Assembly (NCBI GenBank): GCA_038733315.1
Contig: JAVYPJ010000002.1
Location: forward strand, 160,001 to 224,000
Origin: Candidatus Aenigmatarchaeota archaeon
GTDB taxonomy: Archaea > Aenigmatarchaeota > Aenigmatarchaeia > CG10238-14 > SpSt-28
Reading direction: 5' to 3'
DNA length: 64,000 nt
Shown here: piece by piece, positions 6,001 to 15,000 of the stretch
How positions within the stretch are numbered: position 1 is the stretch's first letter
Layout: each line of letters starts with the position of its first letter
Made by a program: the position numbers

Positions 6001-9000
6001 CAATAAACACCTTTACAGAGTTTAGAAATTTTATAGTAAATAATAAACAAAAAATTCTTCATTTTCATATTTCAGATGCAAACGGTTTTTCCCATTCCCA
6101 TTTGCCTTTTGGTAAAGGGGTTTTACCTCTTAGAAGGATAGCAGAATTACTAATAAAAAATTTTAATGATAGAACTATATCTTTTGAAATTTTTGATACA
6201 GACTTTCCAGAAATAGATTTCGAATCTTCTTTTATAATTTTTAAAAATTTAATAGATAAATATGGAAAAGAGTGAGATAATTAAAGTTTTTAGAGAAAAC
6301 AATTTAGATTTCATTAATTCTTTATATTCTAAATGTTTTGACGTTTTGATAAAAAAAGGCGAAGAGTTTTATTTTGTAAAAATATATAAAAACTTAAACT
6401 CTTTGACTTCTGAAGTTTGTCATGATTTAGCTAATTTAGAAAGTTTTTTTGAAGTAAATTCAATAATACTTTCCTTAAGAACATCTAGAAAAACATTAGG
6501 AAATCACATTTATTTAAGAAAAAATGTTAGAGTTTTAAATCTACAAACATTTTTAAAGTTCTTAGAAAATAAAGAGATTTCCATTTATAGATATGGAAAA
6601 GTTGTAATTAATATAGATTTTCAAAAAATGAAAAAACAAAGAGAAACTCTTGGCTATTCTTTAAAAACCTTAGCAAAAAAGCTTGATGTCAGTAAGAAAC
6701 ATATTTACGAAATAGAAAAGGGTATTAGAAAACCTTCTTATGAATTAGCCTTAAAATTAGAAAAAGTTTTAGGAACAAAACTAGTTTGTGAATTAGAAAG
6801 GAAAATTGAAGAAAAAGAAACCTTTAATTTTCTGAAGTTTTGCTCTATAAAGGGTATTAAAAAAGAGGGCAGGAAGTTTATAATTCCTAGAAAAGAAGAT
6901 AAGGCCTTAGAAGAAAGTAGAGAAATGTCTAATTTTTTAAACGTTGAAATATTATGAAAGTTAGAGGTTGGGTTGAAGAACTTAGAGATTTGGGAAAAAT
7001 AAAATTTATTATACTTCATACAGTAGAAGAAGATTACCAAATAACGTGTAAAAAAGAAATTACAGAAAACTTTGAAGAAATAGATAAAATTACATTACAA
7101 AGCGCCATAGAGGTTGAGGGAGATTTAATGGAGCATGGGATTTCTAAAAAACATAAAGAAATCTTGGCTAAAAAAATAAATATAATAAACATTTCTGAAA
7201 AAGTTTTGCCAATAGACCCAAGCAATAAAACTCCATATTCTCTAGACAAAAAATTAGATTGGAGATTTTTAGATTTTAGAAATCATAAAACAATAGCGAT
7301 AATCAAAATTCAAAATACCATTTTAAAATCTTTTAGGGAATTTTTTTCAAGCAAAGGTTTTATAGAGATTTTACCTCCGCTAATAATTTCTTCTGCAAGT
7401 GAAGGGGGTGCCGAATTATTTAAAGTTCAATACTTTGAAAAAGAAGCGTATTTAGCTCAAAGTCCTCAACTATATAAACAGATGGCTGCAATAAGTTTAG
7501 AAAAAGTTTTTTGCATAACTCCTATTTTTAGAGCTGAAAAGCATGATACGCCATTTCATATTAATCAAGTAACAAGCTTAGATATAGAAGTCGCTTTTGC
7601 AAATCACGAAGAAGTTATGAAATATTTAGAAGAATTCTTCGTATATGCTCTAGAAAACATTCAAAACAAAAATGAAAAAGAATTAAAAGAACTAAACATT
7701 AAACTAAATATTCCTCAACTACCATTAACAAGAATAAAGTATGAGGAAGCGATTCAGCTTTTAAATCTTAATTTTGGAGATGAAATAAAAAGAGTTCATG
7801 AAAAAACTCTTTGTGAAAAAATCGAAGAAGCAATTTTTATAACACATTTTCCTAAGGAGCATAGACCATTTTATACAATGATAAATGAAAGTGATAATAG
7901 AATTACAAATTCTTTCGATTTCCTTTATAAAGGCTTAGAATTAGCGAGCGGTTCTCAAAGAATTCATATCGCTGAAATGCTAAAAGCAAGAATTATTGAA
8001 AGCGGACTAGAACCAAAAGATTTTGAAAATTATATTAATGCATTTAAATATGGAGCACCTATGCATGCTGGCTGGGGATTAGGTTTAGAAAGATTCACAA
8101 TGAAAATTTGTAATTTAGAAAATATTAGAGAAGCTACTATGTGGCCAAGAGATAGAAATAGATTAATGCCTTAATTTAAGATTAAAATAGATTTTTCATA
8201 ATATTTTTATGGAAATAACTTTCGAAGAATTCCAAAAAATAGAAATGAAAATAGGAAAAGTGATAGATGTGCAAGAGATTCCGCAATCCAAAAATCTACT
8301 AAAACTAGTTGTAGATTTTGGTAACGAAAAAAGACAATCTGTAGCAGGGCTAAAAACTTATTTCAAAAAAGAAGATCTCATTGGTAAAAAATATGTTTTT
8401 GTAACTAATTTAGAAAAGAAAAAAATGATGGGAGAAGTAAGTGAGTGTATGATATTGGCAGCAATAGATGATTCCGGAAACCTTTCTTTAATCACTCCAG
8501 AAAAAGACATTAAAGAGGGTAGTAAAATAAAATGAAAGTATTTATTGGAAAGAAAAACAATCAAAAAAGAGTAGAAAGTTTAATAACAAAAAATGAAAAA
8601 ACATCGATGCTTTCTATATATTTTAGAGATTTTAAAACCTTAGGCTTAGGAGATGAGGAAAAATTTGTATTAATTTTAGATGGACCAGAAGAATATCTTA
8701 AAATTGCTGAAAGTTTAGTTAAAGGTTTTGTTGAAACTCCAGATGAAAATTTAGAAAAAGAAATAATTAAAAAGTTTAATGAAGAAGAAAACAGAGCAAA
8801 AGAGGGATTTGGATTTTTATTCTCCTGAATATTTTTAATTTTTATTTTAATAATTTATATGCCCCGGTAGCTCAGCATGGATAGAGCGGCGGCCTTCTAA
8901 GCCGTAGGTCGGGGGTTCAAATCCCTCCCGGGGCACTATCGAAACATTATTTCAAATTCGCAAAATTCATCTCCATTGGCAATGCATTTGGTTTCTTCAA

Positions 9001-12000: not shown

Positions 12001-15000
12001 AAAGTGTAGAAAGGGAGTCTACTACACATCTTTTCGGATTTTTATTTTCTAAATATTTTAAAGCCTTATGAAATTTTAACATAAAATCATTTAAATCTGT
12101 TATCTCTTGAATTACAAACTCGTCACTAACTTTTCCACCAACTCTCCAAGAATACGCATCTATAAAAACTACGATTTTACCCTCTATAACCCATCCAAAC
12201 TTTTTCATATTATTAATTAAGTCTTCTGGCGGCGTATCGAACGTTATATATATACCACTTTCACCCCTAGTTAAACCGGTATATATAAACTGTCCACAAA
12301 AAACTGTTTTACCAACTCCAGATGGCCCGAAAAGTAATATTGATGATTTATCTGGAAATCCACCTTCAATTTTATCATCTAAGCCAATTATTCCGCTAGG
12401 AACTCTTTCCATAAATATTATATTTTTTGATATAAAAGATTTTTATGAGTGTTGAAAGAATATCTTCTGGTATTAAAGGTCTAGATGAAAAAATTGGTGG
12501 TGGATTTCCAAAAAATTCAGTTATATTAATAACCGGAAGTCCTGGAACTGGCAAAACAATATTTTGTACTAATTTTTTATTAGATGGTATTAAAAAGAAT
12601 GAGCCAGGAGTTTTTGTTATAACAGAGCAGAAATCTTCAGATTTAAAGTTTGACATATTCGAAAGTATGAAAATTAATTTAGAGGATTATGAAAAAAACA
12701 ATCTACTAAAAATTATTGAAATAGAGCCAGTTTTTTCTGCATCTCCTCAAAGAATAGAGTTAGAAAGAGAAATGGGAAGTATTATCAAAATATATATATT
12801 TGACTTACTTAAAAAAATAGAAAGTGCAATAAAAGAAATAGGTGCTAAAAGATTATGCATAGATTCTATTTCTTTAATAGAAACATTCATAAAAGATGAG
12901 TACTTAAGAAGGGCTGCCCTTACTTTTTTCTTAAAAAATCTGAAAAACTTAGGAATAGTAACTTTAATAACATCATCTCCAAACGATAAAACCAAAAATT
13001 TAAGCATTTCAGGAATTATAGAGTTTTTGGTTGATGGAATAATTAAATTGAGTTATAAACCAAAATCTAAGGACTTTAAAAGAACGATGACAATACTAAA
13101 AATGAGAAGAACTAAACATAGCGAATTCGTTTTACCTTTCAATATAACTAACGAAGGTATAAAGCTTGTAGAAACTGCAATTCAAGAAAAAATTCAGTTT
13201 TAAATAAACATAGATTTATGAATATTAGAACAATTTGGATTAAAGTTAAAGCAAGAAAACTTTTAAGAGAAAATAGAGTTAAAAAAGATTTTGAAAATGA
13301 TTTTAGAATACATTTTAGCGTTAAGGGAGATAAAGATGTTCATTATGTTATTTACGATAAGAATAAAAACGAATTTAGCTGCGATTGTAAATGGTTTTCT
13401 ATTAAAAAAAGAGAGTGTAGCCACATTTTAGCTTGCAAAATGCTTATGCAAATAAAATTAGATTAGCTCTTCAAATAATTATTTGATTAGAAAAATAATT
13501 TTATGGGTGATCAAAAAGAAGAAATTATAAATTTTTTTAAGTCTTGGGATGTTCCTAAGATAGTTTTGCTGAATTTTAAAGAAAAAAAAGGTATTAAATT
13601 AGATTTAGAAATTTCTAACGTCATAAAATTTTTAGTAAATGAAAAAAAGTTAAAATGTATATACATATCAATCAGAACTCCTTCTATTCATCTAATTGAA
13701 ATTTTCAAAAAAAATGATATAGACATTTCTAACATTCTTTTTATAGATGTTATATCTCAATACATATACGTTTCTTCTCCAGAAATCTCTATTTCTAGCG
13801 AAGTCAAATCAGAAAAGTTGGAAAATGTAATAATGCTGAGCTCGCCAGTAAATTTAACAGAATTAGGAATAATTTTTCTAGAAATATCTTCATCTTTTGA
13901 AAAAGATAAGAATTGTTTTATCGTTTTGGATTCTTTAGATTCTATCCTTTTGTACATAGAGAAAGATAAATTTTTAAAGTTTTTTCATTTTTTAGTTACT
14001 AAGCTCAAGCTGTTTAAAGTTCTTGGCATATTCATACAAACTTCCGAAAAGAAAGAAATAATAGAAGATGTAAAATATCTGATAGACGAAATATTTACTA
14101 TTCCAGAAGAAATATAAAATTATGAGCTTGGATATGCTTAGTAGCTATATAATGTTTGTAGGCGTTTTTGGTATTATAATAGGTAGCTTAATAACAGCAA
14201 TATTTTTGTTTTTTTCTTCTAGATACTTTATAACTAAGGAATTAAAAAGAATCTTCAGATTTTTATCTTTTTCTGTATTTTTTCTTTTTCTGTACTTTTT
14301 TTCATATATTTACTCTCTTTTCTTTGACTTACAGAAAAACATTGTAATTATAGTCTTTCAAGTAATTTTTATAATTTTGAATTTAACGTTTTTAATTTAT
14401 TCCTCTATACTAATTTATAATATTTCATTAGATTTAGGCTTTGCTAGCCCAAAAAATGTTAAAAAAATAAAGAGATTTATGGAAAAGAAAGAAGAATAAA
14501 ATTTTGACTACTATAGTAGCCAAAATTTATAAATTTTGACTAATATAGTAGTTAAATTATGAAAGAGAAAATCTTAGAGATTTTAGAGGATTGGAATTTT
14601 TGGAAAAAAGAAATAGATATAGGAATAAAAAGGTTAGAATACCTAGAAAAAATAAAGAGTTTTCTTAAAACTAATATGATAATTGCTATAATTGGGCCAA
14701 GAAGGGCTGGAAAATCTTTTATAATGAGGCAAATCGCTAGAGAGTTAATTATTAATGGTATTAATCCAAAAGAAATTTTAATAGTAAATTTTGAAGATAG
14801 AAGATTTATAGATTTTTCGGTTGAGCTCTTAGATAAAATTTTTGAAACGTATTTAGAATTTGTTAAACCAAAATCAAAACCATATGTTTTCTTTGATGAA
14901 ATTCACAAAATTAAAAACTGGGAAAAATGGATAAGAAATTTTCAGGAGTTGCAAAAAGGTAAGGTTATAATTTCTGGTTCAAATGCAAATTTGCTAAAAG

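Follow-up and report, generated by a model that had tools for sequence, protein, structure and literature searches.

The six-gene cluster described here is best explained as a switch of the MglA/MglB type that is attached to a pseudo-KaiC scaffold and has V4R proteins as an optional sensor. We put the probability of this reading at roughly 0.55. The cluster lies in a window of 64,000 nucleotides, which is the whole stretch of DNA analysed (contig C2, positions 160001-224000). The six genes reported for it in the survey's finding are all real, in that each is an open reading frame with a Pfam match. The start and end given within the window were right, but the contig offset of 128000 was not, the true offset being 160000. 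The features are as follows, in window positions.

8936..9514, minus strand: V4R protein a, 192 aa (Pfam V4R, 6.8e-16)
9487..10116, minus strand: V4R protein b, 209 aa (Pfam V4R, 8.6e-09)
10150..10524, minus strand: Roadblock/LC7 (MglB-like) protein, 124 aa (Pfam Robl_LC7, 9.8e-13)
10528..11679, minus strand: KaiC-GTPase fusion gene, 383 aa (PF06745 at aa 3-192, 1.1e-14; Arf at aa 226-377, 3e-16; also Ras and MMR_HSR1)
10528..11004, minus strand: small GTPase domain of the fusion, MglA-type by motif, aa 226-383 plus stop codon (Pfam Arf, 3e-16)
11005..11064, minus strand: linker of the fusion, aa 206-225, structured in the AlphaFold2 (AF2) model
11065..11679, minus strand: putatively inactivated KaiC-like domain of the fusion, aa 1-205 (Pfam KaiC, 1.1e-14)
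11720..12412, minus strand: KaiC1 (g00598), the free KaiC-like partner, 230 aa (PF06745, 4.7e-38)
12413..12444, no strand: divergent intergenic region between KaiC1 and KaiC2, 32 bp, AT-rich, with TATA-like boxes in both directions
12445..13203, plus strand: KaiC2, a canonical-looking KaiC-like ATPase, 252 aa (PF06745, 2.8e-59)

The host is a tiny hot-spring archaeon. Calculated from the ORF coordinates, the gaps in the five-gene minus-strand run are 40, 3 and 33 nt, the start codon of the Roadblock gene lying 3 nt past the stop codon of the fusion gene, and the last pair overlaps by 28 nt. The last gene, V4R protein a, begins with TTG, and a later start is possible because this codon places it 28 nt inside the upstream gene. 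KaiC2 is transcribed divergently from the other five genes, and the 32-bp region between it and KaiC1 may be a promoter from which leaderless transcripts start in both directions.

The proposal that a KaiC-like domain and a small GTPase are joined in one protein was borne out, since a single ORF encodes a 383-aa chain with both Pfam matches. The AF2 model of the whole chain is confident (pLDDT 89.6, pTM 0.83), and around the linker it contains strands at 198-205, 211-216 and 219-230, with a pLDDT of 80-91 for the block. Linker residues F213, G219, Y223 and P225 vary little or not at all in the alignment of relatives.

The GTPase domain is the sole GTPase of its kind in the host genome. Its motifs are GPYHAGKS at G1, G-T-T at G2, F-G-T-P-G-Q-E-R-F at G3 and N-K-Q-D at G4, with the G-T-P-G-Q and T-T columns invariant among the aligned relatives. 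According to the available part of the survey by Wuichet and Sogaard-Andersen (2014, PMC4316618), GTPGQ replaces DxxGQ at G3 in MglA groups 2-5, and Thr replaces the intrinsic Arg beside the G2 Thr. By these motifs the domain is MglA-type (groups 2-5, which include archaeal group 4), and it shares with those groups the lack of an insertion between G1 and G2. Stand-alone relatives from archaea and Chloroflexi (39-52% identity) have GTPGQ, GSPGQ or ASPGQ. The differences from groups 2-5 are the length of 383 aa, the apparently dead KaiC domain at the N-terminus and the KaiC-like partner gene in the module. The same part of the 2014 survey states that proteins longer than 240 aa were left out (39 of 488 in the MglA clade), so that on this account it covers no such fusions. 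In overall sequence, the closest solved structures are Arf1/Arl1 (4.5e-13 with a single sequence, 4.8e-18 with a profile); Arf, Arl and Rab are nearer than bacterial MglA, which is missing from the 60 best PDB matches by sequence. The label 'Arf/Rag-like' given to the domain previously therefore suits its overall sequence, but not its motifs, and the fusion lacks the Roadblock domain that Rag GTPases have in cis. Compared with Arf/Arl, G3 has no Asp, and the KaiC domain replaces the N-terminal amphipathic helix.

The Roadblock protein is the single Roadblock match in the whole 733-kb genome. Its PDB sequence matches include archaeal 9jue_D (2.4e-17) and 7f8m_A. Neighbourhoods were counted over 79 mapped fusion loci. 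The Roadblock gene lies directly downstream of the fusion in 46, directly upstream in 12 and within three genes in 6 more (64 of 79 in total), and direct adjacency in 58 loci supports the suggestion that the GTPase has its cognate neighbour in this gene. No Roadblock gene was seen within three genes in the remaining 15 loci, in 5 of which the fusion gene is at a contig end.

To our knowledge, the MglA/MglB polarity switch is the sole experimentally understood model for a GTPase-Roadblock pair. The module can be likened to this switch as found in Myxococcus xanthus and Thermus thermophilus (group 1), where a small Ras-superfamily GTPase is regulated by a Roadblock-fold dimer encoded by a neighbouring gene. 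Group 1 has no KaiC-like parts, and in the available part of Wuichet and Sogaard-Andersen (2014, PMC4316618) its motifs are given as TVPGQ with an intrinsic Arg finger, where GTPGQ and Thr are seen here. The same source reports, for MglA groups 2-5, an adjoining Roadblock/MglB gene whose product has a D-G pair, as is the case here (VDGLLIA). By analogy, the Roadblock protein would be an MglB-like regulator of the GTPase, most likely a GAP. This transfer is made by family motif and not by close homology, because the GTPase is nearer to Arf, Arl and Rab than to bacterial MglA. The actinobacterial conservon (CvnA-D) is also a multi-gene module, which combines a GTPase of the MglA family with a Roadblock protein and a partner of ATP-binding fold. 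The Roadblock protein here matches CvnB5 (3leq) at 7e-06, and CvnD9 and MfpB are listed as MglA-family members in the available part of PMC4316618. The ATP-fold partner here is instead KaiC-like and partly fused to the GTPase, and neither a histidine-kinase-like CvnA nor a DUF742 CvnC was found among the window genes scanned with Pfam.

V4R genes occur within five genes of the fusion in only 13 of the 79 loci, in distant lineages. This extends the single other locus noted before, but V4R is no core part of the module, being absent from 66 loci; it is optional, and may serve as a facultative sensor. Protoglobin or PAS proteins occupy comparable positions in other loci. V4R protein a has the invariant Cys/Glu/Cys/Cys columns of the V4R alignment, and its best NCBIfam match (1.2e-15, below cut-off) is to the C-terminal part of MsvR. 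V4R protein b has a weak XylR_N match (0.0017). A Foldseek search with its AF2 model, which is of moderate quality (pLDDT 74.4), gives the phenol-sensor domains of MopR, DmpR and PoxR first (E 1.8e-07, TM about 0.6) and then Bet3/TRAPPC3 (E 3e-06, TMt about 0.62). It is therefore likely to be a ligand or redox sensor.

The Bet3 matches, some of them to chains of TRAPP complexes that also contain longin subunits, raise the alternative that Roadblock and V4R together form a primitive platform like Ragulator or TRAPP, acting as a GEF and not a GAP, with the pair formed by KaiC1 and the inactivated KaiC domain ('iKaiC') as effector. In most of the 13 V4R loci the V4R gene directly adjoins Roadblock (for example L015, L016, L019, L026, L027, L048, L051 and L076), and a 2026 Myxococcus paper, in the part available (PMC13408092), questions the classical GAP and GEF assignments in the MglA system. 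We nevertheless consider this alternative unlikely, given the scarcity of V4R beside a Roadblock gene present in 64 of 79 loci, and the slightly closer match of the V4R model to bacterial ligand sensors than to Bet3. Nor was a V4R-Roadblock fusion found; a 238-aa ORF in L032 matches both, but several genes of the contig on which it lies are broken. The module shares the Roadblock and V4R/Bet3 folds with eukaryotic Rag-Ragulator and TRAPP, although V4R is optional here, and it is on these shared folds only that the link proposed earlier is based.

It is similarly doubtful that the module is a regulator of polarity or of surface structures (pili, archaellum, exopolysaccharide) like bacterial MglA/MglB, and not part of a general sensor pathway. 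Some loci (the L008, L010, L011 cluster) do have a T2SSE/PilB-type ATPase as neighbour, and a PelG-like exporter, a DUF3492 glycosyltransferase and a TPR protein lie beside loci of Bathyarchaeia and Nitrososphaeria; KaiC-family ATPases and arCOG02603 Roadblock proteins are also described from type IV pilus loci in the available part of Makarova et al. (2016). Such neighbours are, however, lineage-specific, and no cluster of unlabelled neighbours exceeds 10 members among the 79 loci. In this window the module is flanked by an aminoacyl-tRNA synthetase, a tRNA-binding protein and AAA_14/DUF4143 ATPases, and no pilus gene lies closer than about 10 kb.

The fused KaiC domain is predicted to keep the KaiC/RecA fold. 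The top Foldseek match of its model is PH0284 (2dr3), a RecA-superfamily ATPase (E 4.2e-16, TMt 0.78-0.80), and it has the N-terminal T-G-I-x-x-L-D motif of archaeal KaiC-like ATPases. Its Walker A is degenerate (S-G-I-F-V-N-K-S, aa 28-35, nt 11575-11598), and the pattern [GA]xxxxGK[ST] is missing from the fused domain in all 79 loci. The catalytic Glu is missing here (the site reads TTTKTP), just 34 of 79 loci have Asp at the aligned Walker B position, and the motif scan found the Arg-finger motif K-x-R-G in none of the fusions mapped. On these motifs the domain appears to be a catalytically dead scaffold, with no role as a second nucleotide switch. Inactivated iKaiC domains joined to signalling domains are attributed to Makarova, Galperin and Koonin (2017) in the available part of Galperin et al. 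(2018, PMC5847659); in the present case the partner is a small GTPase, an architecture that may already be listed in the 2017 survey.

Among its paralogs, the fused domain is most similar to KaiC1, with 27% identity over 142 aa (E 3e-13; KaiC2 gives E 8e-05). KaiC1 keeps the P-loop (GPSGVGKT), but F-D-T (in ITFDTP) stands at the site of KaiC's Glu pair and K-M-M-A (in INKMMATK) at the K-M-R-G site of canonical relatives, so that both the catalytic Glu pair and the Arg-finger motif are missing. KaiC2 has Walker A GSPGTGKT, Glu in ITEQ, Walker B CIDSIS and K-M-R-R, and alone among the three KaiC-like domains looks like an active ATPase; its position next to the module is not conserved in the closest relatives, L001 and L002. 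That a KaiC-like paralog travels with the fusion was confirmed: one is adjacent in 61 of 79 loci and within three genes in 7 more (68 in total). No such neighbour was found in 11, and, given the 15 loci without Roadblock, neither partner is obligatory in cis. An intact Walker A is present on any KaiC-like neighbour in only 38 of the 68 loci, and therefore ATP binding by the partner is no conserved requirement; in Micrarchaeota and Methanosarcinales the partner P-loop is degenerate too (GPPGxEK[LFMV], GPPMSGK[DE]). The survey's picture of a two-nucleotide switch, in which an active KaiC-type ATPase ring made of fused chain and free paralog integrates ATP and GTP turnover, is thus very unlikely: despite a fold belonging to the hexameric PH0284/KaiC family, the P-loop of KaiC1, the ipSAE of 0.84 reported there for the predicted complex, and a canonical KaiC-like gene (Walker A, Glu, K-x-R-G) within three genes in about 16 of 79 loci as judged by eye, KaiC2 here among them, an ATP-hydrolysing ring cannot be the conserved function because the fused domain and KaiC1 lack catalytic motifs and the P-loops of some partners are degenerate.

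For the preferred switch and scaffold, we infer that the MglA-type GTPase forms a permanent, rigid unit with a pseudo-ATPase of KaiC/RecA fold whose ATP site has been lost. The iKaiC domain would provide an oligomerisation and docking surface and pair with KaiC1, which from its motifs can probably bind ATP but not hydrolyse it. Sensory input would likely come from the two V4R proteins, by way of the Cys/Glu/Cys/Cys site and the MopR/PoxR-like fold, and feed the Roadblock-GTPase pair. The KaiC-like scaffold would probably pass on the output by contacting other proteins, possibly the neighbouring, active-looking KaiC2.

A protein search with the fusion reproduced the earlier count of 598 matches among 8000 proteins scored, and by our own count 106 of the 120 matches listed carry both KaiC and GTPase Pfam labels. 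At least 574 fusion relatives were confirmed in species-representative archaeal genomes, from DPANN lineages, Thermoproteota, methanogens, Archaeoglobaceae and others. The distribution of the module is patchy: of 201 genomes of the phylum, 12 were found to have the full-length fusion, which was absent from all 9 other genomes searched in the host's own family. In a tree of GTPase domains, whose root is not fixed, all 42 fused domains fall in one clade together with two short rows (SH-aLRT 96), separate from 76 stand-alone GTPases, and since the sampled fused domains all form this one clade, a single origin of the fusion is suggested. It is concluded that the KaiC-GTPase fusion is real and old, and that the core of the cluster is widespread in archaea.

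The window spans C2:160001-224000, and window positions are obtained by subtracting 160000 from contig positions. Six genes were found by ORF calling in the window, at the coordinates claimed for them in the survey's finding:

8936-9514, minus strand: V4R protein a, 192 aa (Pfam V4R, 6.8e-16)
9487-10116, minus strand: V4R protein b, 209 aa (Pfam V4R, 8.6e-09)
10150-10524, minus strand: Roadblock, an MglB-like protein of 124 aa (Pfam Robl_LC7, 9.8e-13)
10528-11679, minus strand: the fusion, 383 aa (Pfam KaiC PF06745 at aa 3-192, 1.1e-14; Arf at aa 226-377, 3e-16)
11720-12412, minus strand: KaiC1, a free KaiC-like partner of 230 aa (Pfam KaiC, 4.7e-38)
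12445-13203, plus strand: KaiC2, a divergent KaiC-like ATPase of 252 aa (Pfam KaiC, 2.8e-59)

Because the gaps between the minus-strand genes are short (40, 3 and 33 nt, the 3-nt gap being that between the fusion and Roadblock) and the two V4R genes share 28 nt, these five genes look like one operon. KaiC2 starts 32 bp from the first gene of this operon; the AT-rich spacer, in which TATA-like boxes can be read in both directions, is a putative promoter. A search of the 733-kb host genome (7 contigs, estimated to be 94% complete) gave one Roadblock match and one GTPase of the kind present in the fusion, both of them inside the module, and also seven KaiC-like and five V4R matches. The suggestion that the fusion is simply two genes wrongly joined by gene calling was rejected, because there is no stop, there are hundreds of relatives of equal length, and the chain modelled by AlphaFold2 is continuous and confident.

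Several other features of the window were noted. Behind KaiC2, at 13218-14499 on the plus strand and separated by gaps of 14, 36 and 4 nt, are three small ORFs, one of 82 aa with a weak SWIM match (0.0015), one of 125 aa with a weak Yip1 match (0.0026) and one of 204 aa with no Pfam match. They may form one operon with KaiC2, and were not seen beside the module in the two loci of its closest relatives, L001 and L002. Just downstream, at 14559-18605 (plus strand), are three paralogs in tandem (424-441 aa), each containing AAA_14 and DUF4143. The minus strand encodes at 20039-24172 a protein of 1377 aa, probably a large surface protein, in which three stretches match DUF2341 (3.4e-90) and there is a weak match of the 3-keto-disaccharide-hydrolase/LamG-like kind. 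Also on the minus strand, at 36969-41252, is a 1427-aa ORF in which Rpb2 domains 4-7 (aa 8-594) lead in frame into Rpb1 domains 1-5 (aa 600-1407), that is, RNA polymerase subunit B' fused to A', while Rpb2 domains 1-3 (B'') are encoded upstream of it (41249-42769, minus strand). The B'-A' ORF could be a true fusion or the result of a lost stop codon.

The protein search described in the survey's finding was repeated with the same outcome, namely 598 proteins at E <= 0.001 among 8000 scored. Among the 120 matches listed, both KaiC and GTPase Pfam labels are present in 106, the KaiC label is missing from 13 (of about 384-400 aa), and the GTPase label is missing from one partial protein. A profile was made from an alignment of 42 fusions (the window's and 41 of the 120 listed). 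When one genome from each prokaryotic species was scanned with it, at least 600 stretches matched, of which at least 574 were confirmed. Eighty loci were kept for neighbourhood analysis. They belong to Aenigmatarchaeota, Micrarchaeota, Woese-, Nano-, Undin- and Altiarchaeota, Bathyarchaeia, Nitrososphaeria, Hecatellales, Archaeoglobaceae, Methanosarcinales/ANME-2/Methanoperedenaceae, Methanocellales, Methanomicrobiales, Methanobacteriaceae, Hydrothermarchaeales, Thermoplasmata and further groups. In the phylum to which the window belongs the fusion is patchily distributed: 12 of 201 genomes, the window's among them, have a full-length match (E < 1e-150), and none of the nine other genomes searched from the same family has a full-length fusion, the KaiC part alone being matched.

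The N-terminal domain of the fusion belongs to the KaiC/RecA fold, with a Pfam PF06745 score of 54.8 bits against a cut-off of 26.6. The AlphaFold2 model of the fusion (pLDDT 89.6, pTM 0.83) falls below a pLDDT of 50 solely in residues 251-259, in the switch I region, and Foldseek matches it best to PH0284, a RecA-superfamily ATPase (E 4.2e-16, TMt 0.78-0.80). The KaiC fold has been retained despite the loss of its motifs. The Walker A pattern [GA]xxxxGK[ST] is present in none of the 77 fusions that could be aligned to the canonical KaiC2 profile, nor anywhere in the first 200 residues of the two that could not (L030 and L036). The Walker A position reads x-x-P-x-x-D-x-x-x-F in the 42-sequence alignment, S-G-I-F-V-N-K-S in the window's fusion and, as aligned, xxPGVEGD in the Methanosarcinales fusions; the aligned Walker B position is Asp in just 34 of 79. 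In the KaiC family the catalytic Glu follows strand 2, and a K-x-R-G motif holds the trans-acting Arg. The Glu is absent from the window's fusion, which has TTTKTP where KaiC2 has ITEQK, and no fusion in a MAFFT alignment has K-x-R-G (K-[ML]-R-G in the canonical relatives). Judged by its motifs, the fused KaiC-like domain is catalytically dead. The linker that follows it is modelled as strands continuing into the first strand of the G domain, and its residues F213, G219, Y223 and P225 are invariant or nearly so. Both observations, the first from a single AlphaFold2 model, suggest that the KaiC-fold and G domains are held in a fixed mutual arrangement.

In the GTPase domain the motifs G1 (GPxHAGKS), G2 (G-T-T), G3 (F-G-T-P-G-Q-E-R-F) and G4 (N-K-Q-D) are invariant or nearly so. 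Across the 42 sequences G276, T277, G279 and Q280 are invariant and P278 is conserved in at least 90%, so that G3 reads GTPGQ in 38 and GT[ITV]GQ in the other four; T256 and T257 are also invariant, placing a Thr beside the G2 Thr where an intrinsic Arg finger could have been. According to Wuichet and Sogaard-Andersen (2014; PMC4316618), MglA groups 2-5, of which group 4 is archaeal, share GTPGQ and a Thr that replaces the intrinsic Arg of group 1, and the MglB proteins coupled to them retain an Asp-Gly pair. The fusion resembles these groups in its GTPGQ, in the Thr at G2 and in its coupling to a Roadblock gene, whose product has the Asp-Gly pair in V-D-G-L-L-I-A. It differs in its length, since that study surveyed single-domain proteins of 150-240 aa, from which proteins of more than 240 aa were excluded, whereas the fusion has 383 aa and an N-terminal KaiC-fold domain. 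It is unlike group 1 as described there (Myxococcus and Thermus, with TVPGQ and the intrinsic Arg finger), having GTPGQ and T-T.

The survey's finding had called the GTPase Arf/Rag-like. The solved structures nearest by sequence are indeed Arf1/Arl1 (4.5e-13 with a single sequence, 4.8e-18 with a 33-sequence profile), followed by Rab8/Ypt1/Sec4, while bacterial MglA is not among the best 60 PDB sequence matches in either list. 'Arf-like' is therefore fair as a statement of overall similarity. It does not extend to DxxGQ, whose Asp is a defining feature of Arf and of almost every other GTPase: in all 42 fusions Gly takes the place of this Asp. Arf/Sar proteins also have an N-terminal amphipathic helix, whereas the N-terminus of the fused GTPase continues from the KaiC-fold domain. 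Rag/Gtr GTPases carry a C-terminal Roadblock domain in the same chain; the fusion, by contrast, ends a few residues past the last GTPase helix (366-380), and its Roadblock is a separate gene.

Stand-alone relatives of the fused GTPase, found in a search restricted to proteins of 92-294 aa, are of 150-180 aa with 39-52% identity and come from Asgard archaea (Jordarchaeum, Freyarchaeota), Methanobacterium, Methanofastidiosa and Chloroflexi. The 78 that were used have mainly GTPGQ (46), GSPGQ (21) and ASPGQ (9) as G3, with TSPGQ in one. A quick IQ-TREE tree was calculated from these and the 42 fused domains, leaving out P0126-P0159, most of which are partial or of 200-294 aa. All 42 fused domains fall in one clade (SH-aLRT 96), together with two short proteins, P0160 (named as partial) and P0165. 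With midpoint rooting, where the root is not established, the sister clade has eight members, Asgard proteins among them.

In an alignment of 57 Roadblock sequences G34 is invariant and the consensus is S-R-D-G-L-L-I-A. A query with Roadblock against longer proteins for Roadblock-containing fusions gave five matches. Two of them, P0124 and P0125 (643 and 672 aa), have a GTPase cut after G3, a duplicated Roadblock and Arg-rich starts; they were rejected as Roadblock-GTPase fusions and are probably miscalled, broken or rearranged genes of a GC-rich genome. A 238-aa ORF in L032, consisting of Roadblock and a V4R fragment, was likewise rejected as a V4R-Roadblock fusion, its contig having several split genes. 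Conservons place a histidine-kinase-like CvnA and a DUF742 protein, CvnC, beside Roadblock and GTPase; the module differs from them in this, with no Pfam match to CvnA or CvnC in the 12 proteins of the region.

In an alignment of 16 V4R proteins E191, C194 and C202 are invariant and C167 is conserved in at least 90% (numbering of the 209-aa protein). The AlphaFold2 model of V4R is of moderate confidence (pLDDT 74.4). It resembles in fold the Bet3 family, which with longin subunits forms the core of the Rab GEF TRAPP: Bet3/TRAPPC3 chains match with E 3e-06 and TMt about 0.62, and Thorarchaeota TRAPPC3 with 3.9e-04. The phenol-sensor domains of MopR, DmpR and PoxR nevertheless rank higher (E 1.8e-07, TM about 0.6). 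In NCBIfam the top match, to the C-terminal portion of MsvR, scores well under the cut-off of that family.

Neighbours in the 80 loci were labelled by calling ORFs and comparing them with profiles built up from each of the six proteins in the window; a fusion ORF was found in 79 loci, L065 giving none by this method. Roadblock lies on the same strand directly downstream of the fusion in 46 loci and directly upstream in 12, making 58 of 79 in which it is adjacent, and within three genes in another six (64 of 79); in five of the 15 loci without it (L004, L017, L063, L066 and L067) the fusion is at a contig end. KaiC-like genes adjoin the fusion in 61 loci and lie no more than three genes away in seven others (68 of 79). 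V4R is found within five genes in 13 of 79, mostly touching Roadblock, in lineages as distant as Archaeoglobaceae, Hecatellales/Bathyarchaeia, a Halobacteriota genome, Woesearchaeota, Methanobacterium and Methanosarcinales. Of the versions seen, that of one Halobacteriota locus (L026, 2900-5509) is the richest in V4R and Roadblock, with the fusion, Roadblock, three consecutive V4R genes and a second Roadblock.

The 352 unlabelled neighbours were clustered and 80 were scanned with Pfam (21 representing clusters of three or more members, and 59 picked by hand), which gave lineage-specific partners and no further universal one. Neighbours include TPR/SNAP-like proteins and a GT4 transferase in Methanobacteriaceae, a T2SSE/PilB-type ATPase in three DPANN-like loci, and elsewhere protoglobin, PAS and TrmB proteins. 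Seven loci of Bathyarchaeia, Nitrososphaeria and Hecatellales (L013, L014, L016, L020, L025, L037 and L039) have a divergent gene set upstream of the module, with a TPR protein, a DUF3492 glycosyltransferase and, in five, a PelG-like exporter, which looks like a Pel-type exopolysaccharide cluster.

The KaiC-like partners are often degenerate as well. KaiC1 has an intact P-loop (GPSGVGKT), with I-T-F-D-T-P in the place of the Glu and I-N-K-M-M-A-T-K in that of K-x-R-G. It is the paralog closest to the fused domain (27% identity over 142 aa, E 3e-13, compared with E 8e-05 over 56 aa for KaiC2) and the sole other gene in the genome matched below 1e-20 by the fusion profile. Among the 68 loci with a KaiC-like neighbour, Walker A is intact in just 38; the P-loop has become GPPGxEK[LFMV] in Micrarchaeota partners and GPPMSGK[DE] in those of Methanosarcinales. 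Canonical neighbours with Walker A, Glu and K-x-R-G, such as KaiC2, were counted by eye in about 16 loci, and no such gene lies beside the module in L001 or L002.

As read from the sequences and gene order, the conserved core is a chain of dead KaiC and MglA-type GTPase, a Roadblock and a KaiC-like partner, often degenerate too. On the basis of this core, the module would be an MglA/MglB-type switch on a pseudo-ATPase scaffold, to which exchangeable sensors could be added, V4R in the window and protoglobin or PAS elsewhere. We infer all contacts between the module proteins. The survey's finding had instead proposed a two-nucleotide switch, in which a KaiC-like ATPase ring carries the GTPase and Roadblock sets its state. 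As the conserved function this does not hold, given a fused domain without Walker A, Glu or K-x-R-G and partners that are often degenerate, although an active ring of this kind may form where a canonical KaiC adjoins, as KaiC2 does here. A further reading is that the fusion and its KaiC-like partner form a mixed RecA-type ring with a crown of MglA-type GTPases, on which Roadblock, and V4R where present, dock as a primitive Ragulator/TRAPP-like regulator. Such a ring would resemble the KaiC double ring with its second tier replaced by G domains, giving a G-protein-gated KaiC hub. We consider this improbable, at roughly one chance in eight; if true, prokaryotes would provide a precedent for linking the Roadblock/V4R/small-GTPase toolkit with an oligomeric NTPase scaffold.

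No description of a KaiC-GTPase fusion was found in the literature searched, which did not include Makarova et al. (2017), the paper likeliest to list it. Galperin et al. (2018; PMC5847659) cite that paper for inactivated KaiC domains and KaiC-REC fusions, and Podar et al. (2008), on V4R, mention neither GTPase, Roadblock nor KaiC. The module is present in metagenome-assembled Methanosarcinales and Methanobacteriaceae genomes, and experiments would be possible if a cultured, genetically tractable relative carries it.

How archaea transduce signals is poorly known. KaiC-like proteins have been suggested to act as hubs of this process, and the G-protein switches of eukaryotes have their prokaryotic relatives in small GTPases paired with Roadblock. 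The fusion family, which ranges from DPANN groups to methanogens, unites a KaiC-like domain and a small GTPase in one chain. With its fused ATPase domain dead, the family would be a clean case of a pseudo-enzyme serving as a G-protein scaffold. Since Asgard proteins are among the nearest stand-alone relatives of its GTPase in the tree, it also bears on the question of where Arf-like GTPases, and the Roadblock proteins that regulate them, descend from.
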